From the NCBI GenBank assembly GCA_963675665.1, contig OY776510.1:4832001-4896000 (forward strand): a stretch of 64,000 nucleotides of DNA. The letters run 5' to 3'. Of this stretch, positions 22,621-43,393 are shown piece by piece. Made by a program: the position numbers and the translations under genes. Under the pieces are notes generated by a model that ran no database searches, was not told where the DNA came from, and saw nothing but the letters and a program-made list of their open reading frames with translations. Position 1 is the first letter of the stretch, and every line of letters starts with the position of its first letter. This stretch comes from Spirochaetia bacterium (GTDB lineage: Bacteria > Spirochaetota > Spirochaetia > UBA9216).

Positions 22621-22917
22621 TCAGATATCTACTTTTTTAAGTTTGATTACCTCTATATCTTTTCGCCCCAGCTTCAAAGTGTTGTATTTATTTGAAAACT
22701 CAACCGAATGCGGTGAATTCAGATGCGTTTCAAACGCTTCTTCATTTTCATATACTTCATAAAAAATGAATGTTGACGCATCATCTTCCTTTTCATGCAT
22801 TATGAAATGAACATTTCCGGGTTCTTTCATAGTGTTTCGGCCAAGCTCAATCAACAATTTTTTCAGCTCTGCACTTTTATCTTCTTTTCCGTAAACATAC
22901 GCTATCAGATAAACCAT
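22621..22917 (-). CDS. ABM-domain protein (putative quinol monooxygenase/LsrG-like)
   Basis: EPGN...FIFYEVY...AFETHLNSPH. Confidence 0.85.
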   Translation of the reverse strand: MVYLIAYVYGKEDKSAELKKLLIELGRNTMKEPGNVHFIMHEKEDDASTFIFYEVYENEEAFETHLNSPHSVEFSNKYNTLKLGRKDIEVIKLKKVDI

Positions 22918-23011
22918 CGTTTCCTCCAAAAAATCAGGTTATATTATTTTATTTGTCATTTAAAAATTATATTTTATTTTACATCTTCATTATCAACTGT
23001 AATTCGGAAAC

Positions 23012-23965
23012 CTAACGTGTTCCAATCAAACACTCTTTTCTTCTGAATAACGTAATTGCTTTATCCTTTATTTTTTCTGCAGTAAGACCGTATTCTTTTT
23101 TCAGATAATCAACATCTCCAACCTGCCCGAAACGATCTTCAACACCGACGCGCAACATCGGAACGGGAAAATTTTCCGCAAGAACCTCGGCTACAGCCGA
23201 ACCCAGACCATTAATAACCTGGTGGTTCTCACAAGTCACTATTGCTCCGGTCTTCTCCGCATATTTAACGATAATTTCACCGTCTATCGGTTTAATCGTA
23301 TGCATATCAATTACCGCCGCAGAGATTCCTTCTTTTTCAAGCCCGGCCGCAGCTGATAATGCTTCCGGAACCATAATCGTTCCGCTTGCTATTAAAGTCA
23401 CATCCGACCCGTCTCTTATCAATTTGCCTTTGCCCAATTCAAAGTTCTCGCCTTCGGCATACACGGCGGGACCGGACTTTCTGTTCAGCCGCATATAGCT
23501 CGATCCCTTACGGTCTTTTGCCTGGGGAATCAATTCTTTCAGCGACACTATATCGCAGGGTTCAAAGACTACCAGACCGGGAATATTCCTCATCAAACCC
23601 ACATCTTCAAACGGCATATGCGTACCGCCGTTAAGGGCGGCAAGAATACCCGGATCGGAACCCACAAGGTTAACATTCTGCTGAGCATAGTTTGCCGACA
23701 GAAAGAACTGATCATAAGCACGGCGGGCAGCAAAACAGGCAAATGTAGAGGCAAAGGGAATCTTCCCCGCAACAGATAATCCGGAAGCTATTCCTATCAT
23801 ATTGGCTTCGGCAACCCCGCAGTTAATCGTCCGTTCAGGGAAAGCCTCCTTAAAGGGGGTGGTTCCAGTTGCTCTCATCAAGTCGGCTTCCAGAAGCACA
23901 ATTCTTTTATCTTTCTCCGCAAGCTCTATCAACAACTCCGCAAACGCGGCCCTCATTTCTTTCAT
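23012..23965 (-). CDS. Transketolase, C-terminal subunit (split)
   Basis: GVAEANM, NGGTH, TIKPID, ENH...GLG. Confidence 0.92.
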   Translation of the reverse strand: MKEMRAAFAELLIELAEKDKRIVLLEADLMRATGTTPFKEAFPERTINCGVAEANMIGIASGLSVAGKIPFASTFACFAARRAYDQFFLSANYAQQNVNLVGSDPGILAALNGGTHMPFEDVGLMRNIPGLVVFEPCDIVSLKELIPQAKDRKGSSYMRLNRKSGPAVYAEGENFELGKGKLIRDGSDVTLIASGTIMVPEALSAAAGLEKEGISAAVIDMHTIKPIDGEIIVKYAEKTGAIVTCENHQVINGLGSAVAEVLAENFPVPMLRVGVEDRFGQVGDVDYLKKEYGLTAEKIKDKAITLFRRKECLIGTR

Positions 23966-24804
23966 TATGCATACTCCTTATCAAGCACGGCTATAGCCTG
24001 TTCCGCTGCTGTTATATCGAACTTCATATTATGACTTTCTACCTTTCCTTCTCCCGGAGCAAAACCCTTTGCCTTTACGGTATCCAGAATAATCATGGAA
24101 GGCCTGCTGGTTTCCGCTTTTGCATTCAGTATTGCCCGATCAATATCATTGAAATTATGACCGTCCACCCGCTGAACATACCAGCCGAACGACAACCATT
24201 TGGATGTGATATCGGAAATATCCATTACTTCGTACATATAACCGTCAAGTTCCATCTTGTTATAGTCGGTGAACGCTATAAGATTGCCCAATTTGAATTG
24301 GGCCGCAGACATTGCCGCTTCCCAAATCTGACCTTCATTACTTTCTCCGTCTCCAATAATTGAATATATTGTATTCCCGTACCCGCTCATCCTGTCACCA
24401 AGGGCTAACCCGACAGAACAGGAAAATCCCTGCCCCAGAGACCCTGTTGTCATATCAATACCGGGCGTCAAATTCATGTCGCAATGACTGGGAAGACGTG
24501 AGCCGCCGAGGTTCAGCGTATCAAGCCATTGTCCGGGGAAATATCCAAGGTCAGCCAGAATACTGTACAGTGCGGGACCGGCATGCCCCTTCGACAGAAC
24601 AAGCTTGTCCCTGTCCGGCTTCTTCGGATCATCCACATCAATATTCATATGACGGTAATATAACAGCGTCAGCGCATCGACTATCGACATGGCGCCTCCG
24701 ATATGCCCGACACCTATCTTTCCCATCGACATTATTGTCATCTTGCGTATCTCTTTTGCCTTGATTTTAAGTTCAGATACTTTCTCATCCGTCAGTCTTT
24801 TCAT
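23965..24804 (-). CDS. Transketolase, N-terminal subunit (split)
   Basis: GHIGG, LSKGHA, TGSLGQG, TPP motif GDGE..EG..WEA. Confidence 0.92.
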   Translation of the reverse strand: MKRLTDEKVSELKIKAKEIRKMTIMSMGKIGVGHIGGAMSIVDALTLLYYRHMNIDVDDPKKPDRDKLVLSKGHAGPALYSILADLGYFPGQWLDTLNLGGSRLPSHCDMNLTPGIDMTTGSLGQGFSCSVGLALGDRMSGYGNTIYSIIGDGESNEGQIWEAAMSAAQFKLGNLIAFTDYNKMELDGYMYEVMDISDITSKWLSFGWYVQRVDGHNFNDIDRAILNAKAETSRPSMIILDTVKAKGFAPGEGKVESHNMKFDITAAEQAIAVLDKEYA

Positions 24805-24889
24805 AACTTCTAACTCCAATTCAGCTTATAAGAATTCAACAATTTACCGGGGTAATTATAAAAATCAGTAATTTTTACATGAATCCCTG

Positions 24890-25912
24890 TTAACTCACTT
24901 TTATTACGGGCTTTATCAAACTGGTCTTCCCTCCGGCCAATTCTGTAAATATTGCGGGGCATTCATCGAGAAAGTGACTGCTGACAATTCCGTGTATATT
25001 CACCTTTCCTGAAGAAAGCATATTTACAGCGCAATCAAAATCAACCGGTTCATATACACGGGTTCCGACAATCGAAAGTTCGGCAAAATTTACCCTTCGC
25101 ATATCAATTGAACTTTCGCCTTTTGCAATACCGACCTGCACAACGGTTCCGCGGATTCTCGTGTTATCAACAGCAGTCTGATAGCCGGAATTGGTTCCGG
25201 ATACCTCAAAACTGATATCAGGGCCTATGCCCTTGAATTTTTTCCTGATACAGTCAGCCATATCAACACTCCCGGGTGAAACTGCGTCTATTCCGTGACT
25301 TTTAAGCAATGCCAGCCTTGCCTCGTTTATTTCCGAAACAAGAATTCTGTTCACACCGCAGTTACGGAGAATTTCCGCCATTAATATGCCTATTGGCCCC
25401 CCGCCGATTACCAGAACATTATCACCCGGTTTAAAACCGGAGATTCTGATATCGTGAACAGCAACCGCGCACGGTTCCACTATACCTCCAATTTCAGGCG
25501 CAATCCCGTCAGGAAGGCGATGCAGTTTCGAAGCTTTAACCGCAACATATTCTGCAAAACCCCCGTTTACATCAACTCCTATAAGTTTCAGGTCCTTACA
25601 GACATGCGGAAAACCGTTTAAGCACGCAAAGCATTTACCACAGGACAGCAGAGCATCGGCAGCGACAAAATCACCTGCATTAAAGCCTTTGACATTTCTG
25701 CCCCTTTCCGTGATTACTCCGCAAAATTCATGGCCCAGGGCCATTGGGGGCACAGCCCTGATTTTATCAAACAAACCTTTGTAGATAGCCAAATCAGTAC
25801 CGCACACCCCTGTAGCCACAATTTTCAGCAGTACTTCATCATCCTGCATTACCGGCATTGGAAGTTCGGCAACTTCCATCTTTTCTGCTCCGGTCCAAAC
25901 CGCTGCTTTCAT
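24890..25912 (-). CDS. Zn-dependent alcohol/polyol dehydrogenase
   Basis: GVCGTD, GHE, CGKCFAC, GGGPIG. Confidence 0.88.
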   Translation of the reverse strand: MKAAVWTGAEKMEVAELPMPVMQDDEVLLKIVATGVCGTDLAIYKGLFDKIRAVPPMALGHEFCGVITERGRNVKGFNAGDFVAADALLSCGKCFACLNGFPHVCKDLKLIGVDVNGGFAEYVAVKASKLHRLPDGIAPEIGGIVEPCAVAVHDIRISGFKPGDNVLVIGGGPIGILMAEILRNCGVNRILVSEINEARLALLKSHGIDAVSPGSVDMADCIRKKFKGIGPDISFEVSGTNSGYQTAVDNTRIRGTVVQVGIAKGESSIDMRRVNFAELSIVGTRVYEPVDFDCAVNMLSSGKVNIHGIVSSHFLDECPAIFTELAGGKTSLIKPVIKVS

Positions 25913-25922
25913 GATCTACACC

Positions 25923-27089
25923 TTACAAACATTTATTATACAAAGCCCTGATTTCCTGCTCTGATGCAACGCGCGGGTGATTCCGAACATTAACCCCGTA
26001 ACCGTTCATTGCTACTTCTACAGCCTTATCTATATCTGCTTCCTTAAGCCCGATTTCCGAAAATGTGATATTCCCGCCGACATAATCGAGAAATCTTTCT
26101 ATAAGAAGAACGCTTTTTTCAGCTTTTTCATAAAGCGGCAATCCTGACACGGAAGGATCGATGCATTCGGCAAGCTGTCCGAATTTTTCAAAGTTGCTCA
26201 TATAACTGAATTCAATCACTTTCGCCAGGCATGCTGCTATGGAAGCCCCGTGCGGAGCATCGGCAATTCCGCCGACGGGCTGCCCGAGAGCGTGAGGCAG
26301 ACCTACTCCGGCATGACCGATTGCTACTCCTCCGAGAGCGCTCCCCCATGCCATGGCCTTGCGTGCTTCAAGATTCCCGCCGTTTGAAACAGCTTCGGGC
26401 AGGTTTCGGGTAATTATCCTTATCCCCTCTTTGGCAACCATGTCGCTGAAAGGAGTTGCGGCATTTCCGATAAAAGCTTCCAGACAGTGAGAAAGCGCGT
26501 CTATTCCTGTAAGTGCCGTAAGTTTTGGCGGAAGCGTTATCATAAGCTCAGCATCAATAACTGCATAATCCGGAAATATCCTGTTGCTGATGATAGTTCC
26601 CTTTTCATGTTTTTCAGGATTGCTTATTACAGAATAATGTGTAGCCTCAGTCCCTGTTCCGGAGGTAGTCGGGATGACAATGATAGGCAGAACTTTTCCT
26701 ATTTTGTTTGACGGTCGGTCTTCACGATCGATAAAATCCCACGAACCGCCTTCATTCTCAGCCATTACAGCAATGGCCTTGCCTGTATCAATAGCGCTGC
26801 CGCCCCCGACTGCAAGCACGGAATCGCAACGGTTCTTTTTACAGACCTCAGCACCCTCGTCTATTTCCAGACAGCTAGGATTGGGCTTTACCCTGGAATA
26901 AATTGTTGTCTCAATATTGTCCTTACTCAGCAGCAATTCCAGTTCTGCAATAAGTCCGTTCTCAACAAAAAAAGGATCCGACACAAGAAAGCATCTCTTT
27001 CCAAAAGGTTTTATGTACTTGGCTAACTCCCGGTACCCCCCCGCCTTAACGATCAGTTCGCCCGGAAGCTGACATGAAAAATCAATCAT
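25923..27089 (-). CDS. Iron-containing alcohol dehydrogenase
   Basis: GGGSAID, PTTSGTGTE, DALSH, HALG, HG. Confidence 0.9.
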   Translation of the reverse strand: MIDFSCQLPGELIVKAGGYRELAKYIKPFGKRCFLVSDPFFVENGLIAELELLLSKDNIETTIYSRVKPNPSCLEIDEGAEVCKKNRCDSVLAVGGGSAIDTGKAIAVMAENEGGSWDFIDREDRPSNKIGKVLPIIVIPTTSGTGTEATHYSVISNPEKHEKGTIISNRIFPDYAVIDAELMITLPPKLTALTGIDALSHCLEAFIGNAATPFSDMVAKEGIRIITRNLPEAVSNGGNLEARKAMAWGSALGGVAIGHAGVGLPHALGQPVGGIADAPHGASIAACLAKVIEFSYMSNFEKFGQLAECIDPSVSGLPLYEKAEKSVLLIERFLDYVGGNITFSEIGLKEADIDKAVEVAMNGYGVNVRNHPRVASEQEIRALYNKCL

Positions 27090-27104
27090 GGTTTTCTCCT
27101 CGTC

Positions 27105-28253
27105 TTATAATCCGGCAAGCCCGCTCTTGTAATCCCTGCCTATCTTCTCTGCAGTCAGAATTGCGGCACGCATCTCATGAAACTCTATCAGGAACGGTTC
27201 CGTATGTGAGGTCTGGGCCGGAGCACAGGCTCCGCCGGCAATGGTATCGAGCTCTTCCTCCGTGATATCGCCTACTTTCAGATCCTCGAATGTTACCGGC
27301 AGGCCTACACTAATACAGAATTCAACAACCTCTTCAATTTCATCCTTGTCGGCACCTTCAAGAACAAGCATTACGATCGTTCCGAAAGCTACATATTCTC
27401 CATGAAACATATGCTCCCTGCCGCTCAGTTCACTAAACCCGCCGTAAACAGCATGTGCCGTGCTTACGCCGTTACTCTCAAAACCGATACCGCTCATAAG
27501 AGAATTGGCTTCAACTATTCTGTTAAGCGCTTTGGTAACCACATTATTGTCGCAGGCCATTTTTGCCTGAACACCGCATTCAAGCAGAACTTCATAACAG
27601 AGCTCGGCAATGGCCATGGAAGTTTTTGTCGCCTTGGTGCCGGCTGAACCGTCACCGCCCATTCCGCCGCCTGCTATTCCGAGGAAATTATCCCGGTATG
27701 CATTTACACATGTCCGTGCTTCAAAATATGTCGAAAGTGCGTCGCCCATTCCGGCAACAAGCAGGCGTGAAGGCCCGCGGGCAATAATGTCCGTATCAAC
27801 AAGAACTACATCAGGGCTGCGTTCAAAGAAGATTACGTCCTCCTGAGAACCATCTTCCCTGTAGATTACCGAAAGAGCGCTTGTCGGAGCATCATTCGAA
27901 ACAATTGTAGGAACAATACATATCGGCATTTTCACTTCGTTAGCTGCAGCTTTGGCAACATCCAGAACCTTACCGCCCCCTAGAGCAATAACTCCGTCGC
28001 TTTCAGTTTCTTTTATTACTGAAACAACCCTTGAGATTTCCTGTCGCGTAACTTCTCCGTTGAAAACAACGTATTCCAGCTTTACTCCGGTACCTTCAAA
28101 ACTTTTCTCGAGTTCTGCCTGAAGACTTTCTTTTCTTCCCTTGCTGGTTACAACCACCAGCGATTTTCCAAACCATTTGATATATTGGTAAATCCTCTCC
28201 AATTCTTTATAGCCCTGGATGTATCTCCCGGGTGAAGCAAACATTTGCGTCAT
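27105..28253 (-). CDS. gldA: Glycerol dehydrogenase
   Basis: SPGRYIQG, GGGK.LD, DAPTSALSVIY, GMGDALST.FEA, GFES.G...AH, HGE.VAFG. Confidence 0.85.
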   Translation of the reverse strand: MTQMFASPGRYIQGYKELERIYQYIKWFGKSLVVVTSKGRKESLQAELEKSFEGTGVKLEYVVFNGEVTRQEISRVVSVIKETESDGVIALGGGKVLDVAKAAANEVKMPICIVPTIVSNDAPTSALSVIYREDGSQEDVIFFERSPDVVLVDTDIIARGPSRLLVAGMGDALSTYFEARTCVNAYRDNFLGIAGGGMGGDGSAGTKATKTSMAIAELCYEVLLECGVQAKMACDNNVVTKALNRIVEANSLMSGIGFESNGVSTAHAVYGGFSELSGREHMFHGEYVAFGTIVMLVLEGADKDEIEEVVEFCISVGLPVTFEDLKVGDITEEELDTIAGGACAPAQTSHTEPFLIEFHEMRAAILTAEKIGRDYKSGLAGL

Positions 28254-28347: not shown

Positions 28348-28364
28348 TGCAACATTCATGCCAA
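28348..28364 (-). promoter_or_regulatory. sigma54 -24/-12 promoter of the gldA operon
   Basis: TTGGCATGAATGTTGCA. Confidence 0.85.
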
Positions 28365-28597: not shown

Positions 28598-29620
28598 TTA
28601 CTTTTTCATTTTCTTTTCGCGCCAGGTGTCGAAGGATACTACAACTACAATTACAATACCCAGAATAACCTTCTGCCAGAACGGAGTTACGTTGGTAAGA
28701 TCAAGACCGTTATTGAGTACCCCGATTGTAATGATACCAATAACGGTGCCGCCGATACTGCCTATTCCGCCGACAAGGCTTGTTCCGCCCAGAGCTACAG
28801 CCGTTATTGCAAGGAGTTCCATGCCGCTGCCCATAATTGCATTTGCTCCGCCGAGTCTTCCCACCATAACCAGACTGCCCAGAGCACAACAGAACCCGCA
28901 GAGACCGTAAACAATAACTTTTATTTTCTCAACCTTGATTCCGCTTACCCTGGCAGCTTCGGGGTTTCCTCCGACTGCATAGATATTTACGCCGAGAGTT
29001 GTATGATTAAGCATTATCCAAATCAGAGCTGCAACGCCGGCAAATACAAATACAGAAACCGGAACAACTCCTACAGTTCCGCTTCCAAGTACCAGCAGTA
29101 TATCCGGAAGACCCGAGATCGGGATTCCTCCTGAAATAAACAACGCCAATCCGCTTACAGCTGTCATGGTTCCCAGCGTGGCAATAAAATCCTGAATTTT
29201 AAATCTGGTTATTACCAACCCGTTTACAATTCCGATAAGAGTGCCCATTCCCAGGCTGGCGGTTACAGAAAGCCATGGAGGAAACCCAAGCTTGGTGGAT
29301 GTAACCGCAATTAAACATCCGCAGGCGGCCATTACGGAACCGACCGACAAATCAATACCGGCTGTAAGAATTACCAGGGTCTCTCCCAGGGCCATTATTC
29401 CGAGAACAGAAGACTGCCTGATAATATTCAGCAGATTGCTTGTTTTCAAAAACATCGGACTGGCAACCGACATGAATATAAACAGAAAAAGCAAAATCAG
29501 GACCGGACTGCTTTTCTGCATAAAGCTTGATAATTTACCCCGCCCTTCCTTTTCTTCTGCACAACCTTCAACATCGGAAATTTTATTCTCTTCCATTTTT
29601 AACACTTTATCTTTAACCAT
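28598..29620 (-). CDS. Sugar ABC transporter permease (RbsC-like)
   Basis: AGIDLSVGS, YAVGGNPEAARVSGI, LGGTSLVGG. Confidence 0.93.
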   Translation of the reverse strand: MVKDKVLKMEENKISDVEGCAEEKEGRGKLSSFMQKSSPVLILLFLFIFMSVASPMFLKTSNLLNIIRQSSVLGIMALGETLVILTAGIDLSVGSVMAACGCLIAVTSTKLGFPPWLSVTASLGMGTLIGIVNGLVITRFKIQDFIATLGTMTAVSGLALFISGGIPISGLPDILLVLGSGTVGVVPVSVFVFAGVAALIWIMLNHTTLGVNIYAVGGNPEAARVSGIKVEKIKVIVYGLCGFCCALGSLVMVGRLGGANAIMGSGMELLAITAVALGGTSLVGGIGSIGGTVIGIITIGVLNNGLDLTNVTPFWQKVILGIVIVVVVSFDTWREKKMKK

Positions 29621-29622
29621 AT

Positions 29623-31116
29623 TTATGCTCCTGCAGCCTTTCTAACAATTTCTTCCTGTGAAGTATTACCGGTTTTAAATTTACCCGTTATGCACCCTTT
29701 TTTCATAACAAGTATGTTATCCGAGATACCCAGCAGTTCCGGCATGTCTGATGAAACCAGTATTACAGAACCGCCGTTTCTGGTTATCTGGTTAATTATT
29801 TTATAAACTTCGACCTTGGCGCCTACATCTACACCACGGGTCGGATCATCCATAAAAAATACCTGTGTTTCATTACACAGCCATTTTGCCAGTGCAATTT
29901 TCTGCTGATTACCGCCGCTCAATGTGGAAAGGTTATGCTCCAAATCAGCCGTTTTATCCAGTCTCAGTTCTGCGGCAAGTTCTCCGGCAATCGACAGTTC
30001 CTTTTTCCGGTTTCTGATCCCACCTCTGCTGAAGGTTGCAGGTGATGAAATAATTATATTTTTTAAAATTGTCATGTTTGCAAAAAGACCTTCGCGCCTG
30101 TCTTTTGTTACAAGCCCGAATTTCTTATTAATCATATAAGTCGGAGATTTGCATTCCAGTACGGTATTTCCGAAATTAACGCTCCCTTTTTTAATTTTTT
30201 CAAGTCCGAACATAGCTTTTAAAAGTTCGGTTCGCCCGGAACCCACAAGGCCGGCAATTCCAAGAACTTCACCTTTTCTCAGATCAAAATTTATATCATA
30301 AAAGTGTTTATTATCGGAAAGATCGTTAACACTGAATATAATTTCTTCGGTGACATTATATTCTTTCGGATATTGCTCATCGAGTTTTCGGCCTACCATC
30401 ATTTCAACAAGCTCATCCTCATTTGTTTCTTCAACTGTATTAACCGTCCCGACCGAACTTCCGTCACGTAGCACTGTAACCCTGTCGCCTATATTAAATA
30501 CCTCGGACATTTTATGTGTGATGTATATGAATGATACGCCGTCCGATTTAAGTTTATTAATTACCGAAAACAACTTTTCGGTTTCAGATCCTGTAAGAGC
30601 GGATGTGGGTTCATCAAGAATAACCAGACGCGCATCTCTTGAGGTGGCCCTGATTATTTCAACAAGCTGCTGGATACCGAGATCATACTCTGAAACCCTT
30701 TTTGAAACATCTATCTCAATTTCAAGTTCCATGAAAACACGTTTTACATAATTCTCGGCCCTTTTCCAGTCTATAAACGGTGAAGCGCCGATCCTGGGCA
30801 TCCTGCCAATCCATATATTTTCAAAAACGCTTCTTTCTTTAAGTAAAGTCAATTCCTGATATACCATACCTATTCCCAAATCCAGGGAATCTGAAGGTCT
30901 TTTTATATTAACTTCCTGATCATGCCAGAATATACTGCCGCAGTCCGGTTGATGCACTCCTGAAAGAATTTTCATCAGTGTAGATTTACCTGCTCCATTC
31001 TCCCCAAGAAGTACATGGACTTCACCTTTCATTACTGAAAAATCAACACCGTTAAGCGCATGTACTCCCTGAAACTGTTTTCTTATATCGTGCATTCGAA
31101 GAATTTCACTACCCAT
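29623..31116 (-). CDS. Sugar ABC transporter ATP-binding protein
   Basis: GENGAGKS, ILDEPT, LSGGNQQK. Confidence 0.93.
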   Translation of the reverse strand: MGSEILRMHDIRKQFQGVHALNGVDFSVMKGEVHVLLGENGAGKSTLMKILSGVHQPDCGSIFWHDQEVNIKRPSDSLDLGIGMVYQELTLLKERSVFENIWIGRMPRIGASPFIDWKRAENYVKRVFMELEIEIDVSKRVSEYDLGIQQLVEIIRATSRDARLVILDEPTSALTGSETEKLFSVINKLKSDGVSFIYITHKMSEVFNIGDRVTVLRDGSSVGTVNTVEETNEDELVEMMVGRKLDEQYPKEYNVTEEIIFSVNDLSDNKHFYDINFDLRKGEVLGIAGLVGSGRTELLKAMFGLEKIKKGSVNFGNTVLECKSPTYMINKKFGLVTKDRREGLFANMTILKNIIISSPATFSRGGIRNRKKELSIAGELAAELRLDKTADLEHNLSTLSGGNQQKIALAKWLCNETQVFFMDDPTRGVDVGAKVEVYKIINQITRNGGSVILVSSDMPELLGISDNILVMKKGCITGKFKTGNTSQEEIVRKAAGA

Positions 31117-31172: not shown

Positions 31173-32306
31173 CTATCTTCCTGCCTTGTACTCGTCTATA
31201 ATGCTCTTCCAGTCAATATCTGAAAGATAAGGCTCCGGATAGAACATATCGGCATTTACCTTGTATTCCGTCCTCGGGCGGATATCAAATACAGCAGGCG
31301 CCTCAAGGTTAAGGGCAAGCCTTGTTCCGAATTCAACTCCGTACCATCCCCATTCCGGGAATCCGTGCCATGTTTCTGCAAGAATATTGCCTTTCCTTAT
31401 AAGATCAACACTTTCCGGAGTTCCGTCATTAGTAAGAACAAGAACGTCGTCCCTGCCCATGTTCTTAACAGCTATTGAAACACCAATTCCCATCTCGGCA
31501 CAGGATGCCCATATGGCATCAAGCTCCTGGTTTGCCTGAAGAATATTTTCTCCGGCCGCAACTGCCGGTTGTCTTTGCCAGTCAGCATTAAGAGAAGACT
31601 TGATATCTATGTTCGGATAATTATCAACTACAGAATGGAAACCGTTCATCCTTTCAATATCATAAAAACTGCCGGGAACGCCGCCCACCAGGGCGATCTT
31701 TCCCGAGATGGAATTCTTATCAACATCTTTATAAATGTCTTCCCACCATGCAAGGTCAAGATAATCTTTATCGGAAATATTTACTTTTTCGCCGGCACCA
31801 AGCACACCGGGACCGCCCAAAGCATCCAGCATTGCGTAACCGGAAACAGCTGCACAAACCTGGTTATCAAAACCGATAAATGTATCAACCTCAACACCTT
31901 CAATCGGTTTAAGAAGATTTACTACAATCAATGGTATACCGGCTTTGTTTACCTGCTTCAGGGCGGGAATTATTGCCGCGACATCAGAAGGTGAAAGAAT
32001 AATTACATCTACTTCACTCTGAATCAGGTTCTCAATTACCGATACCTGATCTGTAACATTTTTATGTGCGGAACCGACCCTGGTTATCAATTCAATATCT
32101 ATTCCATGTGCCTTTGCATCTTCAACTGCCATTTCCATGAAATTTGTAGCTGTCTGATAAACACCTGTTATTGTAGGAGGAGCCCAGCCAATCTTGACAA
32201 CCGGCAAACCGGACTCACTCAGCCTGGCCTCCTGCTGGCCGTTTGCGAAAGTTGCTGAAACCAGAATCAGTCCCAGAACCAACATCAGAAAAACCTTTTT
32301 TCTCAC
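31173..32306 (-). CDS. Sugar ABC substrate-binding protein
   Basis: GTG start at 32306 after AAGGAG gives a signal peptide plus ANGQQE; type 1 PBP. Confidence 0.88.
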   Translation of the reverse strand: MRKKVFLMLVLGLILVSATFANGQQEARLSESGLPVVKIGWAPPTITGVYQTATNFMEMAVEDAKAHGIDIELITRVGSAHKNVTDQVSVIENLIQSEVDVIILSPSDVAAIIPALKQVNKAGIPLIVVNLLKPIEGVEVDTFIGFDNQVCAAVSGYAMLDALGGPGVLGAGEKVNISDKDYLDLAWWEDIYKDVDKNSISGKIALVGGVPGSFYDIERMNGFHSVVDNYPNIDIKSSLNADWQRQPAVAAGENILQANQELDAIWASCAEMGIGVSIAVKNMGRDDVLVLTNDGTPESVDLIRKGNILAETWHGFPEWGWYGVEFGTRLALNLEAPAVFDIRPRTEYKVNADMFYPEPYLSDIDWKSIIDEYKAGR

Positions 32307-32340: not shown

Positions 32341-32357
32341 AGCAGTAACCATGCCAA
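32341..32357 (-). promoter_or_regulatory. sigma54 -24/-12 promoter
   Basis: TTGGCATGGTTACTGCT (GG-N10-GC), 35 bp upstream of the GTG start. Confidence 0.8.
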
Positions 32358-32516
32358 AATTGCAGTAACAATTAAATTATTAAAGATCCGCCGAAAATTT
32401 ACCGCTGGATCATATTTAAACAGTAAATCATTATGAAAATACCTAATTTCTATTTGACAATCTTTAAAAAGTAAAACAATAATCATAAATAACGCGATAT
32501 ACATCAGCATAAACAC

Positions 32517-32554
32517 ATTACAGTTATGTAAACAGATTGTAACAGTTCTGTAAA
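32517..32554. promoter_or_regulatory. Tandem putative enhancer boxes
   Basis: ATTACAGTTATGTAAA and GTAACAGTTCTGTAAA, 22 bp apart. Confidence 0.68.
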
Positions 32555-32583
32555 ACTGAATCAAATAAATTTGGAGAATCGTT

Positions 32584-33942
32584 TTGGGCCTAAATATTCT
32601 AATAGTTGATGATCAAAAAAAGCATAATCAGACTCTTGCCCGCAGTCTTAAACTGAGAGGTAATGAAACATACAGCTGTGCCAACAGCGAACAGGCTTAT
32701 AACGTACTTAAGAAAAACAAAATTGACTATATTCTCCTTGATATAATGCTTGATAATGAAGACGGTATTTCATTGATACCGAATTTCATAAATACGGCCC
32801 CGGAATCAAAAATAATCATGATTACAGCATACGGAACAATATCATCAGCAGTTAAAGCCCTGAAACTCGGAGCTGAAGACTATATTCAAAAGCCGATTGA
32901 TATCGAACATCTGGTTTGCATGCTGCAGTCAAACACTATCAGGAAATCAGGTAAAAAAAATAATTCCGGCACTATGGAAAACTGCGGCATCATAACCAAG
33001 AACAGGCAGATGCTTTCGGTCATTGAAAAAGCCAAACTATATGCATCATCAGATTTACCGGCCTTGATTATAGGAGAAAGCGGCACGGGAAAAGAACTGC
33101 TTGCGGACCTCATCCATGCCAATTCTTCATACTCCGAAAAAGCAATGCATAAAATAAATTCATCTGCATTCTCCGAATCACTTCTTGAAAGTGAACTGTT
33201 CGGACACGAGGAGGGGTCTTTTACCGGAGCGAAATCAACTCACAAGGGTATTTTTGAACGGGCAAACCACAGCAGCCTCTTTATGGACGAGATAGGAGAT
33301 ATGCCCCTTTCTCTGCAGGCAAAAATTCTCAGAACAATACAGAATCATGAAATTCTCAGACTTGGCGGGAAAGACACCATAAAAATTAATGTAAGATTTA
33401 TCGCCGCTACAAACAAGGATCTGTATACACTGGTCCATCAGAACCTGTTCAGACAGGATCTATACTACCGGCTTAACACAGGCATATTCAGACTGCCGCC
33501 CTTAAGAGAGAGAAAGGAAGATATCCCCGACCTGGTTAAATTCTTTATCGCTTCAAAGAAACAGAAATTTCATGATGCTGTCGAATTGGACGACAGTGTT
33601 ATCAACTTTTTTCTGGATTACGACTGGCCCGGAAATGTCCGGGAACTCCAGAGCGTAATATTCTATGCAGATGCAATCTGCCGTGACGGGAAAATCAGAA
33701 AAGAACACCTTCCTGAATATATCCTGTCGGAACTGAGCCCGTCAGTCTGTAACGGGTTGAGCTTTCAGGCGGAATATGATGACAGGGATGAAAAGACAGT
33801 AATCGAAAAAACACTTAAGGAAATGAACTACATCAAAAAAGATGTGGCTTTTAAACTCGGGATAAGCCGTCCGACACTTTACAGAAAGATGGAGAAATAC
33901 AATATCAACGGGCAAAAGCAAGATGAAACTTCTGTCATTTGA
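32584..33942 (+). CDS. sigma54-dependent response regulator (NtrC family: REC-AAA+-Fis HTH)
   Basis: VDD/LLD/KP receiver residues, GESGTGKE, ESELFGH..GSFTGA, WPGNVREL, LGISRPTLYRK. Confidence 0.95.
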   Translation: MGLNILIVDDQKKHNQTLARSLKLRGNETYSCANSEQAYNVLKKNKIDYILLDIMLDNEDGISLIPNFINTAPESKIIMITAYGTISSAVKALKLGAEDYIQKPIDIEHLVCMLQSNTIRKSGKKNNSGTMENCGIITKNRQMLSVIEKAKLYASSDLPALIIGESGTGKELLADLIHANSSYSEKAMHKINSSAFSESLLESELFGHEEGSFTGAKSTHKGIFERANHSSLFMDEIGDMPLSLQAKILRTIQNHEILRLGGKDTIKINVRFIAATNKDLYTLVHQNLFRQDLYYRLNTGIFRLPPLRERKEDIPDLVKFFIASKKQKFHDAVELDDSVINFFLDYDWPGNVRELQSVIFYADAICRDGKIRKEHLPEYILSELSPSVCNGLSFQAEYDDRDEKTVIEKTLKEMNYIKKDVAFKLGISRPTLYRKMEKYNINGQKQDETSVI

Positions 33943-35740
33943 GAATATCAGCTATTATCAGAACCATAAAGAAATATTAAATAATATATCCTTCTCTATC
34001 GGACCCGGAGATATTCAGGTTATACTTGGCGATAATAACTCAGGCCGTTCAATTCTGGCCCTGCTGTTATCAGGAAGAGCAAAACCGACATCCGGAGTAA
34101 TCAGATATAAAGGAAAACCTTATAAATCTTTTTCCATAACCGAAGCCAAGAAAAATGCAATAGAAATATGTACTACCGAGCTGAATCTTGTAGAATCCAT
34201 GAGCGTAGAAAAGAATCTGTTTATCGGAATTCAAAACCGGAAACTGCTTCAATTTTACAGCAACGCCTCATTCCATAAAAAAATAAACTCCTTTCTTGCT
34301 CATTATGATTTCAAAATCAATTCAAATCAGAAAGTAGCGGAGCTTGACATCTCGCAAAAGGCTGTAGTCAAGCTGCTGCAATGTATTTATTACAAACCCG
34401 AATTGCTTGTAATTGACGAACTGTTTTCGCTGATGTCTCACGACGACAGAAAAAAAGCGCTTCCAATCCTGAAAGAACTGAGAGAAAGCGGATGCTCCAT
34501 TTTGTATCTCACCCAGAGTATCGAAGGCATACTGGGAATTGCCGGGAAAGTGCGGATAATAAGAAAAGGTGAAATTGTATTCACTGAAGACTCCGAAAAC
34601 CTTGATGAAATTAATCTTGCTTCAATACTCTATTCCCAGGAAAGCGAAGACCAGGAGAATTCGCTATCCAACAGCGATTTTATGCAATACCTGAAATACA
34701 ACCAGGCGATATTAAGGGATTTACCGGTTAACCTCCTGGTGTTTGATCAGGATCATAAACTGAGGTTGTGCAACAAGGCGGCATCTGACTTCCTTGCAAA
34801 CGAAGAACTGAAAACAGATGTTTTCAAAATAATCAAGAACAGGGGAAACGATATCCCGATTGTGTTAACCGCGCTGGCTTCCAGAAAAGATGAAATCTTA
34901 TACAACATACCGGTCGAAGTAAATAATAAATCTTTTGTTACAAACCTTATCTTTTCGCCGGTTTTTAATAATAATATCTATATCGGCAAGATCATGATAA
35001 TTGACGACATAACACAGCAGCACAAACTGCGTGAATCTATAACACAAACCGAGAAATTTTCGTCAATCGGGCTTTTAACTTCGGGCGTTGCACATGAAAT
35101 CAACCATCCGCTGGGAATAATAGCGAATACTGTTGATTATCTCAAATCACTTAAAACAACGGATAAAATCAAATTTGAGATTGAAAGCATTGAAGATGAA
35201 GTAAAATCAATCAGTTATATCATCGGAAATCTGAAAGAATTTGCCAGTGATAATATTACCAAAACAGATTATTTTGATATTAATGATTTAATCAGAAAAG
35301 TATTACAGATAATGAGATTTTACTGCAGAGAAAACAATGCTGAAATAATTCTGGACGCTTTTCCCAGCAGCATCTTCGTAAAACTTAACCCAACCGATTT
35401 CAAGCATGTTCTGATTAATATAATAAAGAACAGTATTCAGGCCATGTCCGCATCCAAAAAAATCATTATCAAAACCGATCTGCTCTTATCCAGTACTGAA
35501 GCAAAAACAATTGTAACAATTACGGATAACGGTCCGGGAATAAGCGCCGAAGATCCTAACGATGTATTTTTACCGTTTTACTCTACAAAAAGGGAAATCG
35601 GCGAAGGTATGGGGCTGGGACTGTATCTTACATATAAAATGGTACTATCAATGAACGGCAATATAAATGTTAAGAATTTGCCGGGAGAAGGCTGCAGATT
35701 CTCAATCGAATTGCCTGTCAGCCATCCGCCCGGATATTAG
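33923..35740 (+). CDS. Soluble histidine kinase with N-terminal degenerate ABC-ATPase domain, PAS-like domain, HisKA and HATPase
   Basis: ILNNISFSI..G....ILGDNNSGRS, PELLVIDE; DDIT; AHEINHPL, NIIKNS, DNGPGI, PFYSTK, GMGLGL; no TM segment seen. Confidence 0.88.
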   Translation: MKLLSFENISYYQNHKEILNNISFSIGPGDIQVILGDNNSGRSILALLLSGRAKPTSGVIRYKGKPYKSFSITEAKKNAIEICTTELNLVESMSVEKNLFIGIQNRKLLQFYSNASFHKKINSFLAHYDFKINSNQKVAELDISQKAVVKLLQCIYYKPELLVIDELFSLMSHDDRKKALPILKELRESGCSILYLTQSIEGILGIAGKVRIIRKGEIVFTEDSENLDEINLASILYSQESEDQENSLSNSDFMQYLKYNQAILRDLPVNLLVFDQDHKLRLCNKAASDFLANEELKTDVFKIIKNRGNDIPIVLTALASRKDEILYNIPVEVNNKSFVTNLIFSPVFNNNIYIGKIMIIDDITQQHKLRESITQTEKFSSIGLLTSGVAHEINHPLGIIANTVDYLKSLKTTDKIKFEIESIEDEVKSISYIIGNLKEFASDNITKTDYFDINDLIRKVLQIMRFYCRENNAEIILDAFPSSIFVKLNPTDFKHVLINIIKNSIQAMSASKKIIIKTDLLLSSTEAKTIVTITDNGPGISAEDPNDVFLPFYSTKREIGEGMGLGLYLTYKMVLSMNGNINVKNLPGEGCRFSIELPVSHPPGY

Positions 35741-35742
35741 AA

Positions 35743-36603
35743 TCAAAATAGACTTTTTATAAAACTGCAGGCTTTTTCTGCATCCTCATCAAGATTATGC
35801 CCCGGGACCAGCTCACGGTGAAGACTTACCGATTCAGCTACCCCGCCGCCGGGGATTACAAAGGGCTCGAACACAATATAACCCTTGTATTGTATCTCTT
35901 TTATTGCTTTTATTATCTCCTCCCACGGAACATGGCCGGAGCCGGGGACTTTACGATTACTTTCTCCGAAATGGATATGACCAACCCAGTTTCCTGATGT
36001 TCTGATAGCTTCGGCAATACTGTCTTCTTCTATGTTCATATGAAAAGTGTCAAGCAGGAGTTTACAATTACTGCTTCCGACCCTTTCGCAGAATTCAACG
36101 CCCTCTTCAGCTGTGTTAATTAAAAAATGTTCAAAACGGTTGAGAACTTCCAGATTTACAGTAATATTTAAATCTTCCGCATAATTCATCAACTCTTTGA
36201 CGCTTTTAACAGATATATCAAGTATCTCCTCTTTACCTGCGCCCCTGCCTGATAAAAATCCGGGCCAGCATGAATATGTGATGCCGCCTAATCTGTCAAT
36301 ACCGCAGGCATTTAAAGCCATGTAAACTTTCCTGAAATAATCCATTCCTGCTTTTCTGATATTTTGATCAGTTGATGCAATATCATATTCCGGAGCTGTT
36401 CCGATACATGCCGACAAAGCAACGCCTGTTCTCTCTGCTTCTTCTTTCAAAAAGGCCTTTTCCTTATCAGTAAATGAGATTAAACAATCTGCATTCACTT
36501 CCAGGACATCAAATCCAAGAGTTTTAACTTTTTCCAGATATGAGAAGAAATCACATGTCCAGTCTTTTTCCCAATATGCATAATAAATACCTATTTTGTT
36601 CAT
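35743..36603 (-). CDS. D-psicose/D-tagatose 3-epimerase family
   Basis: IGIYYAYW, EVLNRFE, DTFHMNIEE, GHIH.GE.NR..PG, EPF. Confidence 0.9.
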   Translation of the reverse strand: MNKIGIYYAYWEKDWTCDFFSYLEKVKTLGFDVLEVNADCLISFTDKEKAFLKEEAERTGVALSACIGTAPEYDIASTDQNIRKAGMDYFRKVYMALNACGIDRLGGITYSCWPGFLSGRGAGKEEILDISVKSVKELMNYAEDLNITVNLEVLNRFEHFLINTAEEGVEFCERVGSSNCKLLLDTFHMNIEEDSIAEAIRTSGNWVGHIHFGESNRKVPGSGHVPWEEIIKAIKEIQYKGYIVFEPFVIPGGGVAESVSLHRELVPGHNLDEDAEKACSFIKSLF

Positions 36604-38297: not shown

Positions 38298-38314
38298 TGC
38301 AATATATGTGCCAA
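38298..38314 (-). promoter_or_regulatory. sigma54 -24/-12 promoter
   Basis: TTGGCACATATATTGCA, an exact TGGCAC-N5-TTGCA match. Confidence 0.88.
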
Positions 38315-38478: not shown

Positions 38479-38515
38479 TTGTAAAATATATGTTATAAGG
38501 ATTATGGAGACTAAC

Positions 38516-40345
38516 ATGAAAACAAAAGGATATATGGGCAAGATCGCCAGGGTTGATCTGTCACGAAAAAAAATCGAGATTATTGAACTTGATGATGCGT
38601 TCGCACGTAAATATATTGGGGGCTCCGGTTTCGGAGCAAAATTTCTTTATGATGAAACAGGGCCGGAAACCGATCCTCTCGGACCGGACAATCTGCTAAT
38701 CTTTGCAACAGGCCCGGTAACCGGAACAAAAGCATTTAATTCGGACAGATTCGAGGTAATTACAAAATCGCCCAAATCAGGAATGTACGGCGAAGCAAAC
38801 TGCGGAGGCAGATGGGGCAGCAGATTTAAAAAGTGCGGATTTGACGCCCTTGTGATTAAAGGCTGCTCGGATAAACCTGTATACCTGGATATTTCCGACG
38901 GAGAAATCAGCATAAACGATGCCTCGGATCTGTGGGGACTGGACACCTTTAAAACACATTCCAATCTCAAGGAAAAAAACGGAGCTAAATCGGAAGTTGC
39001 ATGTATCGGTCCATCCGGAGAAATGATGATGCCCATTGCGGCAATAATAGCAGACGGACGCCACGGGAGGGCAGCCGGTCGTTCGGGAGTAGGCGCCGTA
39101 ATGGGATCCAAGAAGCTAAAAGCTGTCGTTGTAAACGGAACCCGGGAAATAGAAACAGCTGATGTCGACCTTATCACATCAACAAATAAAGCAGTTCTTC
39201 CGACAATGAGGACTGATGCAAAAGCTTTAACAGAAGCAGGCACAGCCTGCTCGCTTGATCTTTTCGAAGAAATCGGAAATCTGCCGATCAAAAACTGGTA
39301 CCAGGGCAACTGGCAGCCGGCGGTTGATAATCTCACCGGCTATGCGTCGATAGCAAAAACCAAAGTAAAAGACTACGGCTGCGGAAACTGCCCTATTCGC
39401 TGCGGCAAGGTTACCCTGACAAAGGGCGGCGAATACGACGGGGTTGATGTTGCAGCGCCCGAGTATGAAACCGTAGCCCTGATGGGGTCAAACTGCCTGA
39501 TAGATGATTATGATACAATCGTTAAGCAGAACGAAATCTGCAATGCATACGGTGTGGACACAATTGCGGCGGGAAACATCATTGCCTTTGCAATGGAAGC
39601 ATACGAACGCGGGATACTGACCGATGAACATACCGGAGGTATGGATCTGAGCTTCGGCAATGTCGATTCAGCAAAAAAACTTCTTGAAACAGTAGTAAAA
39701 AAGGAAGGCTTTCTCGGAGATCTTTTTAAAACGGGAATCAGGGATGCCGCAAAAAAACTGGGTAAAAACTCTGAAGAATTTGCGTTAAACGTCAAGAACC
39801 AGGAAATACCGGCACATGACCCCCGCGCCAATTTTTCACTGGCAATAAACTATGCGACCTCAAACCGCGGGGCCTGCCACCTGACATTCAGCCAGGACTA
39901 TGAAGAGGGAAATGTTCCCAAACTGGGCGCGCCAGATCAAAAGGGCAGATTCTCGCCAGACAAAGCTGTTTATTCCGCCAGAATGCAGGACTGGGCAACA
40001 ATGTTTGATTCTCTGTGTTTATGCAAATTCGCACGTTACGGAGGGGTTATGATCGACGAATGCCTGAATTACCTGAACGGATCAACCGGCTGGGATTTTA
40101 CTGCCGAGGAATTCATTCAGGCTGGCGAAAGGCTTTTTAATCTAAAACGCATGTATAATGTCCGGCACGGGGCATCCAGAAAGGACGATCAGCTTCCGCT
40201 TCGGATGCAGACGCACAGGCGCGGAGGAGGAACAAATGAACTTCCGCCGTTTAACATCATGCTTAACGAGTATTACCAGGCCAGGGGCTGGGACGACATG
40301 GGAATACCGCATGAAGAAAAACTGAAAGAGCTCCAACTGAAATAA
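38516..40345 (+). CDS. aor: Aldehyde:ferredoxin oxidoreductase family (W/Mo-pterin, 4Fe-4S)
   Basis: YIGG.G.G, KSP.SG, GRSGVGAVMGSK.LKA, CGNCPIRC, PEYET, RGACH, DSLCLC. Confidence 0.9.
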   Translation: MKTKGYMGKIARVDLSRKKIEIIELDDAFARKYIGGSGFGAKFLYDETGPETDPLGPDNLLIFATGPVTGTKAFNSDRFEVITKSPKSGMYGEANCGGRWGSRFKKCGFDALVIKGCSDKPVYLDISDGEISINDASDLWGLDTFKTHSNLKEKNGAKSEVACIGPSGEMMMPIAAIIADGRHGRAAGRSGVGAVMGSKKLKAVVVNGTREIETADVDLITSTNKAVLPTMRTDAKALTEAGTACSLDLFEEIGNLPIKNWYQGNWQPAVDNLTGYASIAKTKVKDYGCGNCPIRCGKVTLTKGGEYDGVDVAAPEYETVALMGSNCLIDDYDTIVKQNEICNAYGVDTIAAGNIIAFAMEAYERGILTDEHTGGMDLSFGNVDSAKKLLETVVKKEGFLGDLFKTGIRDAAKKLGKNSEEFALNVKNQEIPAHDPRANFSLAINYATSNRGACHLTFSQDYEEGNVPKLGAPDQKGRFSPDKAVYSARMQDWATMFDSLCLCKFARYGGVMIDECLNYLNGSTGWDFTAEEFIQAGERLFNLKRMYNVRHGASRKDDQLPLRMQTHRRGGGTNELPPFNIMLNEYYQARGWDDMGIPHEEKLKELQLK

Positions 40346-41315: not shown

Positions 41316-41362
41316 CTTTAAAATATCATATTAAATAATCTTTTACAGTTTTCATTTCATAC

Positions 41363-42364: not shown

Positions 42365-42944
42365 CCCCGGACTCTTTGCTGCGCATATGGTTAAAAATCA
42401 TTGCCAGCGGCCACCAGAGCAAACCGAAAGCCGGATAAACAAACCAGATCGTATTGGGACTGAAATAATAATTGGTAAATATCAGGAGGGCCATAACCAG
42501 TAAATAACTGCTGATCGAAAACGGAAGACCAAAAGATTTATTATATTTGAAATGTCTCCATCTGAAAAACTGCACTATAGGCCACCAGAGAACCGCAAAT
42601 ACAGGATAAACAAACCAGATTATATACGGTGTATAGTATAAATTGATAAACACAAAAAATGCAGAGGTAAGGATTACACCCCATATTGAAAATGCGAGCG
42701 CGAGTGCCAGTTTCTTGCTTTTTTCTGTTCTCGTTCCGCTTTCCAGTTCTTTCTTCAATTCTTCTATATCGCCGAAATCCTCCATCGCAGCTTTCATGGC
42801 CTCATCTTCAGTCTGTCCCTGTGCCACAAGATCAGAGACCTTGTCCGAAAAATCCTGTATAATTTCCTGGACAATTTCCTGCTTGCGGCTGCTTTCAGGG
42901 ATTTTTTCAAAAAGACTGTTTATGCTTCTTTCAATTTTGTTCAT
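42345..42944 (-). CDS. HAAS/permease-prefix domain membrane protein
   Basis: EI..D..DKV.DL...G..E.EA...A..DFGD, then two WFVYP..WWP units. Confidence 0.82.
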   Translation of the reverse strand: MNKIERSINSLFEKIPESSRKQEIVQEIIQDFSDKVSDLVAQGQTEDEAMKAAMEDFGDIEELKKELESGTRTEKSKKLALALAFSIWGVILTSAFFVFINLYYTPYIIWFVYPVFAVLWWPIVQFFRWRHFKYNKSFGLPFSISSYLLVMALLIFTNYYFSPNTIWFVYPAFGLLWWPLAMIFNHMRSKESGGDENDE

Positions 42945-43276: not shown

Positions 43277-43316
43277 ACCTCCTTTAATAAATTCTTCTGC
43301 AATTACACCACACAGT

Positions 43317-43393
43317 GTACTGTCTCTCAGAGTACTGCCTGTCAGTACTCTATCTGACATAGTTATAATAATTCAAATTGTTATGTCTGTCAA
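43317..43393 (-). promoter_or_regulatory. sigma70 promoter and palindromic operator of the padR operon
   Basis: TTGACA-17-TATTAT (43393-43365); AGAGTACTG-N5-CAGTACTCT at 43329-43351. Confidence 0.7.

Follow-up and report, generated by a model that had tools for sequence, protein, structure and literature searches.

A soluble histidine kinase with an input domain derived from CUT2 sugar-importer ATPases in a Spirochaetia genome, and its possible docking on the transporter

In Bce-type modules, the kinase BceS senses without a ligand-binding sensor of its own and controls the expression of its ATP-binding cassette (ABC) transporter, with the activity of the transporter as the proposed signal. 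BceS belongs to the intramembrane-sensing kinases and makes contact with the permease by its membrane helices, BceAB is exporter-like and of the FtsX type, and the regulator is of the OmpR type. In the Pho system, PhoU relays the state of the importer: it links the nucleotide-binding domain (NBD) protein PstB to PhoR, a kinase that receives the signal at its cytoplasmic PAS domain. In the maltose system of E. coli, the NBD subunit MalK sequesters the transcription factor MalT via its C-terminal regulatory domain. The kinases AtoS and ZraS sit in the membrane and have their sensors in the periplasm. To our knowledge, in transporter-coupled signalling (Bce, Pho, Mal and Dcu-type co-sensors) the kinase and the transporter motor are always separate proteins. 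The tie of a kinase to an ABC transporter in Bce-type modules (passages in PMC9169098 and PMC3023708) and the link of an ABC importer to kinase signalling in PstSCAB-PhoU-PhoR (passages in PMC5775613) are the points of reference for the locus described here, in which a soluble histidine kinase carries an N-terminal domain resembling the NBD of CUT2 sugar importers. The locus lies in a stretch of 64,000 nucleotides (nt) from the genome of a Spirochaetia bacterium (contig OY776510.1, positions 4,832,001 to 4,896,000), which is called the window and is numbered from its first letter.

Two overlapping plus-strand open reading frames (ORFs), at 32584-33942 and 33923-35740, make up the segment of interest. 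They overlap by 20 nt and the pair is divergent from a CUT2 operon of a binding protein, a two-NBD ATPase and one permease; a preliminary description of the window had reported both the overlap of the kinase gene with a sigma54 regulator gene and the divergence from a sugar ABC operon. The upstream gene encodes the regulator (Pfam: Sigma54_activat, E = 1.9e-61; Response_reg, E = 6.3e-25; HTH_8, E = 6.9e-10), the translation of which carries the GSFTGA loop and GESGTGKE, with REC, AAA+ and Fis-type HTH domains as in the NtrC class. Its nearest NCBIfam model was AtoC (E = 6.1e-106), at 355 bits for a cut-off of 714 bits. The downstream gene encodes the kinase, in which Pfam recognised ABC_tran at residues 19-167 (E = 6.6e-17), HisKA at 384-442 and HATPase_c at 490-600 (E = 2.8e-20). 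Residues 2-250 were matched in NCBIfam solely by the N-terminal half of CUT2 sugar ATPase models (YtfR, 1.1e-32; also AlsA, XylG, AraG, MglA and RbsA; E from 1e-32 to 3e-28), all scores being far under the curated cut-offs, and residues 253-601 by AtoS (E = 7.4e-56; 190 bits for a cut-off of 646 bits). No NCBIfam model was matched at its cut-off, and none spanned the whole NBD-PAS-HisKA-HATPase_c architecture.

The PAS domain of the window copy was placed by the secondary structure of the structural model, and PAS_4 was recognised by Pfam in paralogs and relatives. The highest mean Kyte-Doolittle hydropathy over 19 residues was 1.26 in the kinase, vs 2.63 in the neighbouring permease, so that no stretch resembled a membrane helix. 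The domain content first described (a PAS-like segment, HisKA and HATPase, with no transmembrane helix) was therefore borne out by Pfam, by the model and by hydropathy. The phospho-acceptor H391, in the H-box AHEINHPL, was invariant across the 136 sequences of the family alignment, as were N503, D535, G537, G539, G564 and G566 of HATPase_c. With its DHp hairpin and H-box His, its Asn, Asp and Gly at the GHKL positions and a cognate REC gene alongside, the protein has the features of a HisKA-type kinase. The pairing of kinase and regulator is read from gene adjacency and domains, and phosphotransfer between them is predicted.

The preliminary description had likened the first ~235 residues to the N-terminal NBD of the neighbouring RbsA-like ATPases, which agrees with the NCBIfam matches, the tree and the NBD fold (AlphaFold2, Foldseek), and had called the domain a dead ATPase. 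Every motif that it quoted was present in the translation: Walker A GDNNSGRS at 36-43 (R42), Thr at the Q-loop Gln position (T85, in T85-E86), Gln at the H-loop His position (Q198, in YLTQ 195-198), the retained Walker B LLVIDE at 161-166, and AHEINHPL. The signature position reads LDISQK, and the D-loop reads DELFSL where ATPases have DEPTSAL. The window copy shares with ABC ATPases the NBD fold and the Walker B pattern hhhhDE; it lacks the Walker A Lys, the Q-loop Gln, the H-loop His, the D-loop and tandem NBDs (one ABC_tran match).

Across the 136 family sequences, the Walker A Lys and the Walker B Asp were each present in 130; the catalytic Glu was retained by 119, the Q-loop Gln by 103 and the H-loop His by 88, and the window protein was the only one with Arg in Walker A. 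Among the paralogs, the one at genome 1048694-1050517 is an example with intact motifs. The Q-loop Gln and the H-loop His were 100% conserved in the N-domains of the 70 CUT2 ATPases of the genome. By these alignments the window copy is the most degenerate NBD of the family, and the word dead fits its motifs and not those of the family. The kinase family is without the D-loop residues P167 and T168, which the ATPases conserve at 96% and 89%; compared with the 70 ATPase N-domains it has also lost the signature Gln, E86, E175, E202 and several N-terminal invariants, and has gained conserved positions of its own. In the same 70 ATPases, Walker A Lys was found in 70/70 N-domains and LSGG in 0/70, and C-domains had Arg in 48/70 and LSGG in 68/70. 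The degenerate signature motif of the kinase is therefore read as inherited and not as decay. As a whole, the NBD family looks able to bind nucleotide and unable to form the canonical hydrolytic sandwich, because residues of the nucleotide site are mostly kept and those of the D-loop and signature are lost.

The AlphaFold2 model of the kinase, built with the 136-sequence alignment, had a mean pLDDT of 88.9; residues 1-240 were mostly above 95, followed by a short linker of low confidence, and the DHp helices spanned 364-409 and 414-441. Foldseek matched the NBD part to LptB (4p33_A; TM 0.88, rmsd 2.9 Å), to the MacB NBD (5lj9_B; TM 0.81) and to the SmsC NBD, with TM between 0.80 and 0.88 overall, and sequence matches of the NBD in the PDB reached down to 5.7e-16. 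The PAS-DHp-CA part (residues 249-600; CA, catalytic ATP-binding domain) was matched by the soluble PAS-kinase YF1 (4gcz) and by LOV-kinase chimeras. Chains of MetN, MalK-like proteins, FbpC and PotA aligned over 366-412 columns, vs ~240 residues in the NBD. In our reading, these lengths suggest that the alignments also cover the C-terminal regulatory domain under importer NBDs, a topology in which there would be room for a kinase dimer beneath a permease.

In the NBD tree (66 domains), all 24 domains from kinases formed one clade (SH-aLRT 99) nested among the ATPase N-domains, and the C-domains formed a separate clade (99). By this phylogeny, the kinase NBD has a single origin, in the N-terminal NBD of CUT2 (RbsA-type) ATPases. 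That each kinase NBD had been copied from the ATPase of its own neighbour was considered, and is ruled out by the monophyly of the kinase NBDs. The window copy was sister to paralog 4 (95) and their neighbouring ATPases were sisters too (86), which points to duplication of the whole module.

The fusion recurs widely. The source genome (5.15 Mb, one contig) encodes eight full-length paralogs at 28-34% identity, and the window kinase was 28-37% identical over residues 2-600 to the seven other paralogs, to proteins P0004 and P0005 and to 17 foreign loci. When 1.84 billion representative proteins were searched exhaustively with a profile, at least 126 of the best 149 non-self entries were 580-660 aa long; the listed entries of this length matched in a single stretch along essentially the whole profile, the lowest listed score being 315 bits. 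A word-index homolog search (8000 candidates scored) returned three fusion clusters, an undercount compared with the profile search. ABC_tran, HisKA and HATPase_c were all recognised by Pfam in the five representatives scanned (5/5), and the ESM Atlas placed the kinase in a 62-member ABC_tran+HisKA+HATPase_c cluster. Among species-representative genomes, the 17 full-length foreign loci came from three phyla, in records labelled KSB3/Moduliflexus/Vecturithrix (KSB3/Moduliflexota), various Spirochaetota and one Planctomycetota metagenome-assembled genome (MAG). Within the same class the family was found in 17 of 41 genomes (source genome included), the others having 1-3 copies vs eight.

Contigs of two independent runs (another sample, another study) covered 32401-35900 without a break; they differed by 33 substitutions and had no indels. 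The second-strain kinase was identical at 601 of 605 residues, its degenerate motifs were identical, and neither assembly had a stop. An assembly or frameshift artefact, which the preliminary description had named among the outcomes that would undo it, is ruled out by the colinear independent contigs, the eight paralogs and more than 100 relatives. Short "joints" at 33095-33650, with sides of 20-29 letters, were considered as deletions and judged to be conserved AAA+ motifs of other sigma54 activators. In the NBD region, the strains differed by eight synonymous and two conservative non-synonymous changes, giving a ratio of non-synonymous to synonymous rates (dN/dS) of ~0.07 (binomial p vs neutrality 1.7e-4) from one strain pair and small numbers. 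Judged from these changes, the NBD of the degenerate window copy is under purifying selection, and such selection on a domain with a degenerated nucleotide site suggests a binding surface. Five related genomes were searched for orthologs of the window copy, and identity did not exceed 34%.

The searches of architecture and neighbourhood thus agree with the fusion as first described, in at least 126 representatives and with a CUT2 partner operon in 20 of 23 informative loci. On the sequence record, NBD-PAS-HisKA-HATPase_c kinases are a real and conserved type of two-component sensor. The type is apparently uncharacterised: the preliminary description knew of no characterised system with an NBD-kinase fusion, and no paper on an ABC NBD fused to a histidine kinase was found in a full-text literature search, with subscription journals outside its coverage.

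Three observations on relatives are recorded beside these counts. Feature neighbours in the ESM Atlas (score 0.84, a lead only) were clusters of 826-852 aa with ABC_tran, GAF_2 and HisKA, commonest in Actinomycetota, and suggest a second, GAF-containing class of NBD-kinase fusions. In a Spirochaetota MAG (CAWGAA010000002.1, 2941-9791; L083), two regulator-kinase pairs of the family lie back to back, one adjoining a CUT2 ATPase and permease and the other a binding-protein gene. In two Sphaerochaetaceae MAGs, a 364-aa protein is encoded directly downstream of the kinase (+ strand; L022, 9950-11044; L023, 9934-11028); it matched the kinase-NBD profile at 115 bits and may be a free single NBD partnering the kinase.

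The regulator-kinase pair is accompanied by a consistent arrangement of neighbours. The sigma54 regulator was directly upstream of the kinase in 8/8 own loci and 16/17 foreign loci, the seventeenth (L027) starting at a contig end without upstream DNA. CUT2 genes were adjacent in 7/8 own loci (six divergent, one co-directional) and in 13/15 foreign loci with enough flank. The intergenic region had an element TGGCA[CT]-N5-xTGC on its target strand in 7/8 own and 9/11 foreign loci, vs 0/8 and 1/11 on the opposite strand; the chance expectation is ~1 region in 10, as we estimate from the density of matches in the window. Across the family, a sigma54 regulator upstream thus goes together with a sigma54 promoter facing the neighbouring, mostly CUT2, operon. 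Because of the placement of the element on the target strand vs the opposite strand, the presence of rpoN in the genome and the regulator-CUT2 adjacency, sigma54-dependent control of the neighbouring operon by the pair is well supported.

Four sigma54 promoters had been proposed for the window. Four such sites were found upstream of operons, at 38299, 32342, 28349 and 11224, all on the minus strand; window-wide, 40 sigma54-like matches were observed vs 47 expected. With a count not above chance, only the placement in promoter regions is informative. The site at 38299 precedes an operon of SDR, glyoxalase, cupin and xylose-isomerase-like TIM genes, which runs from 38261 down to 35743 and ends beside the kinase gene; from this promoter match, the operon may be a further target of the regulator.

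The operon next to paralog 6, its apparent target, encodes dehydrogenases and a glycyl radical enzyme, with a perfect sigma54 site facing the dehydrogenase operon. Paralogs 6 and 7 (L013, genome 4303144-4322913; L014, 1965784-1985583) adjoin PFL-like glycyl radical enzymes of 803 and 808 aa, with Zn-dehydrogenases beside them and an activase for one of the two enzymes. Selenocysteine genes (SelB-like elongation factor, SelA) adjoin the locus of paralog 4 (L011, 4218-7311; genome ~1947649-1950742).

It is tentatively proposed, with confidence somewhat short of even, that the NBD-derived domain engages the CUT2 permease or transporter and that the kinase reports the state of the transporter. What the sequences and models show is the architecture, fold, origin, conservation, selection, and promoter and operon wiring; docking and signal relay we infer. 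The kinase has no predicted periplasmic or membrane part, and its NBD-derived input module is joined via PAS to the kinase core. On the cytoplasmic side, the input module would bind the coupling site of the homodimeric permease in its cognate CUT2 transporter, and the kinase dimer would sense whether a ligand-loaded binding protein works the transporter. Relative motion of the two NBD-like domains would pass to PAS and the DHp helices and lead to autophosphorylation, and from there to the regulator and the sigma54 promoters. The soluble kinase and the sigma54 enhancer-binding regulator would in this way switch on the divergent CUT2 sugar or polyol importer and the catabolic genes. For the window copy, K42R and the absence of the Q-loop Gln and the H-loop His make a binding surface a more likely retained role than an ATP switch.

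The origin of the domain in a CUT2 NBD, the CUT2 association in 20/23 loci and the lack of any obvious sensor besides PAS argue for docking. A predicted complex of two copies of the neighbouring permease with kinase residues 1-245 scored 0.58 (runs 0.59, 0.57 and 0.58), the best control scoring 0.04; contact agreement between runs was at least 94%, partner pLDDT was at least 77, and the verdict was "weak support". The mark was passed by 116 of 157 solved complexes and by 2 of 215 mismatched pairs, and at scores of 0.60 or less the passes were 18 of the 157 solved complexes and both mismatches. The pass may also reflect likeness only, because NBD-permease complexes of other ABC families have been solved. 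In the genome, all six CUT2 operons divergent to a kinase had one permease gene (6/6), and the other 64 CUT2 ATPase loci had one in 27, two in 32 and none in 5 (Fisher p = 0.024, overstated because paralogs are not independent). A single permease gene implies a homodimeric membrane part, symmetric like the kinase dimer.

A more specific form of docking is rather doubtful. In it, the kinase dimer would replace the RbsA-type ATPase on the homodimeric CUT2 permease, giving a signalling-only complex of binding protein, two permeases and two kinases. Once the liganded binding protein docks, the two N-type NBD-like domains would work like a pair of tweezers, and PAS and the DHp helices would turn their motion into autophosphorylation. 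External substrate would in this way be measured without import (a "transceptor"), and each of the eight paralogs would be such a receptor, paired with one particular CUT2 system out of 70. Such an NBD-like pair would be unable to form a hydrolytic ATP sandwich, since no family member has LSGGQ.

The docking on a permease that the preliminary description had put forward thus has the complex prediction on its side, and a number of results weigh against it. The score lies in the weak range, and with the D-loop, signature residues and E86 lost in the family, transporter-type constraints persist only in part. Each neighbouring transporter encodes its own complete two-NBD ATPase, with which the kinase would have to compete unless it binds elsewhere, and two permease genes are present in 4 of the 12 adjacent transporters of foreign loci. 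Within 25 kb of paralog 6 there was neither a CUT2 permease nor a binding protein nor a two-NBD ATPase, and foreign loci L021 and L029 are without CUT2 genes nearby. A mirror-tree comparison of the NBD with permease, ATPase and binding protein over 13 modules gave no NBD-specific signal: r with the permease was 0.57 for the NBD vs 0.52 for DHp, 0.53 for CA and 0.59 for the regulator HTH, and the NBD-ATPase correlation (r 0.53-0.54) was no better than that of other kinase domains. Kinase and regulator domains formed one block (r 0.8-0.9) and transporter parts another (r 0.85), with cross-correlations of 0.3-0.6; a weak test confounded by shared history, the mirror-tree gives neither support for docking nor strong evidence against it. 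Mean distances over the 13 modules were 2.08 for PAS, 1.46 for the NBD, 1.30 for CA and 0.99 for DHp, an order expected if PAS, not the NBD, sets ligand specificity. These distances, the missing permease-specific co-variation of the NBD, the three loci (paralog 6, L021 and L029) that work without an adjacent transporter and the closest structural match of residues 249-600, the soluble PAS-kinase YF1, would all suit a kinase switched by the imported sugar or polyol, or its first catabolite, bound to PAS. The NBD would then be an accessory (dimerisation, stability or ATP-dependent tuning) without transporter contact, and the CUT2 link an adjacency of regulator and target inherited since the first fusion. 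That is possible though somewhat unlikely, since it leaves unexplained the long retention of the NBD fold (at least 126 cluster representatives, three phyla), the purifying selection on a copy with a degenerate nucleotide site, and the CUT2 partner operon in most informative loci.

Action of the NBD through nucleotide, as an ATP/ADP switch, or through the ATPase of the transporter is improbable. In the latter case, the N-type NBD would pair with a C-type LSGGQ NBD and sense an idle ATPase, like MalK holding MalT. The nucleotide-site residues kept by most of the family, the loss of its D-loop and signature residues and the strict asymmetry of CUT2 ATPases are in its favour, and by that asymmetry the N-type kinase NBD is chemically complementary to a C-type NBD. 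However, the window copy is without Lys, Gln and His and yet conserved by selection, CUT2 ATPases have their N- and C-domains in one chain, engaged with each other, the scanned loci had no gene for a free C-type NBD beside the kinases, and the NBD showed no preference for the ATPase in the distance correlations. It is very unlikely that the NBD of the window copy is an inert relic on its way out, with the kinase signalling by PAS alone or constitutively. Its Walker A Arg, unique in the family, the further loss of the Q-loop Gln and the H-loop His, and the lack of a closer ortholog in the related genomes would fit a relic; the excess of synonymous changes between strains, the pLDDT above 95 over most of the domain and the absence of indels and stops in either assembly would not. 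Arg in Walker A is, besides, normal in CUT2 C-domains, which are functional parts of transporters.

The features of the locus are collected in Table 1. The start of the binding-protein gene is probably the GTG at 32306, which lies behind an AAGGAGA ribosome-binding site and is followed by a signal-peptide-like N-terminus. In the neighbouring ATPase, the N-domain has the Walker A Lys, Q-loop, Walker B DE and H-loop, with DLGIQQ at the signature; the C-domain has a Walker A Arg and LSGGNQQ, and is without catalytic Glu and H-loop His. The window contains six BPD_transp_2 permease genes, as many permeases as had been stated. From their dehydrogenases and transketolase, the catabolic genes are probably a pathway for an imported polyol or (rare) sugar.

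Table 1. Coordinates of the regulator-kinase pair, the kinase domains, the sigma54 sites and the neighbouring CUT2 operon in the window
Feature	Position	Strand	Details
Sigma54-dependent response regulator	32584..33942	+	452 aa, TTG start; REC, Sigma54_activat, AAA_lid_14, HTH_8
Soluble histidine kinase	33923..35740	+	605 aa; order NBD-like, PAS, DHp (HisKA), CA (HATPase_c)
NBD-like input domain	33923..34642	+	residues 1-240; by phylogeny from the N-terminal NBD of CUT2 ATPases
PAS domain	34667..35008	+	residues 249-362; conserved N-cap helix FxxxLKYNxAILxxLP in front
DHp / HisKA hairpin	35012..35245	+	residues 364-441; phospho-acceptor H391, codon 35093-35095
Catalytic ATP-binding domain (HATPase_c)	35267..35716	+	residues 449-598
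Candidate sigma54 -24/-12 promoter TGGCATGGTTACTGC	32342..32356	-	~36 nt upstream of the corrected binding-protein start
Candidate sigma54 promoter TGGCATGAATGTTGC	28349..28363	-	between permease and dehydrogenase genes; 1 mismatch
Sigma54 -24/-12 match TGGCACATATATTGC	38299..38313	-	0 mismatches; upstream of SDR operon
Periplasmic sugar-binding protein (Peripla_BP_4)	31173..32306	-	Pfam 1.6e-45
Complete CUT2 ATPase, two NBDs	29623..31116	-	Pfam 2x ABC_tran, 1.1e-51
CUT2 permease (BPD_transp_2)	28598..29620	-	single permease gene of the operon, candidate docking partner; Pfam 4.4e-41
Downstream catabolic genes	22621..28253	-	two Fe-type and one Zn-type alcohol dehydrogenase, split transketolase (N, C), ABM monooxygenase-like; Pfam

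By a local HMM search, CUT2 ATPases with two NBDs number 70 in the genome and CUT2 permease genes 95; the complement is unusually large, and no more than eight of these systems have an NBD-kinase next to them. Elsewhere in the window, an aldehyde:ferredoxin oxidoreductase gene (AFOR_N, AFOR_C, E = 1e-117) at 38504-40345 (+) and the SDR operon point away from each other. At 40353-42944 (-), three ORFs in a row (320, 333 and 199 aa) had no Pfam match at E <= 1e-5, and a PadR-family regulator gene lies upstream of them at 42941-43360. The ORF at 45388-46743 (-) has RVT_1 and GIIM maturase domains and, judged from these, is probably part of a group II intron.

If docking is true, the NBD-kinases would offer a compact and genetically tractable model for how the occupancy of a binding protein is signalled across the membrane by ABC importers, for the specificity of NBD and permease among 70 paralogous systems in one cell, and for the turning of NBD motion into kinase control. 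The window copy, with its fold kept under selection and its nucleotide-site residues gone, is a natural separation-of-function variant. An annotation rule would also be gained for proteins that are now named just "histidine kinase" or "ATP-binding protein".

As in the Bce modules of Firmicutes, the kinase is genetically linked to an ABC transporter, a resemblance that is functional only. Unlike BceS, the window kinase is soluble and without a membrane helix, with a captured NBD as the presumed contact; the importer beside it is of the CUT2 class and has a binding protein and a permease of the BPD_transp_2 and not the BceB/FtsX type, and its regulator is a sigma54 activator. The NBD-PAS-kinase order resembles a hard-wired version of the PstB-PhoU-PhoR chain. 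The Pho system, however, uses the working PstB, non-covalently and via an adaptor, whereas here the kinase carries an additional NBD copy as a fused domain, next to a transporter that has not lost its own ATPase; nothing PhoU-like turned up among the genes of the scanned own loci and the window. With MalK and MalT the locus would share the participation of a transporter NBD in gene regulation by transporter activity, but the maltose system has neither phosphorelay nor gene fusion. The CUT2 ATPases (RbsA, YtfR, AlsA, XylG, AraG, MglA; TC 3.A.1.2) are the source of the input domain and their N-domains are likewise without LSGGQ; the kinase differs from them in its single NBD, in the loss of the D-loop Pro-Thr, E175 and E202, and in the fused PAS-HisKA-HATPase_c. 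AtoS/AtoC and ZraS/ZraR, of the NtrB/NtrC class, are the nearest named models for kinase core and regulator and share the sigma54 output, but they are without the NBD, and the scores of the window proteins are far under the equivalog cut-offs. Compared with all of these, the NBD-kinase is a variant of transporter-coupled signalling, with well supported wiring and plausible docking, in which a transporter motor domain was captured as the input of a soluble kinase, long kept in several phyla and expanded eight-fold in one genome.

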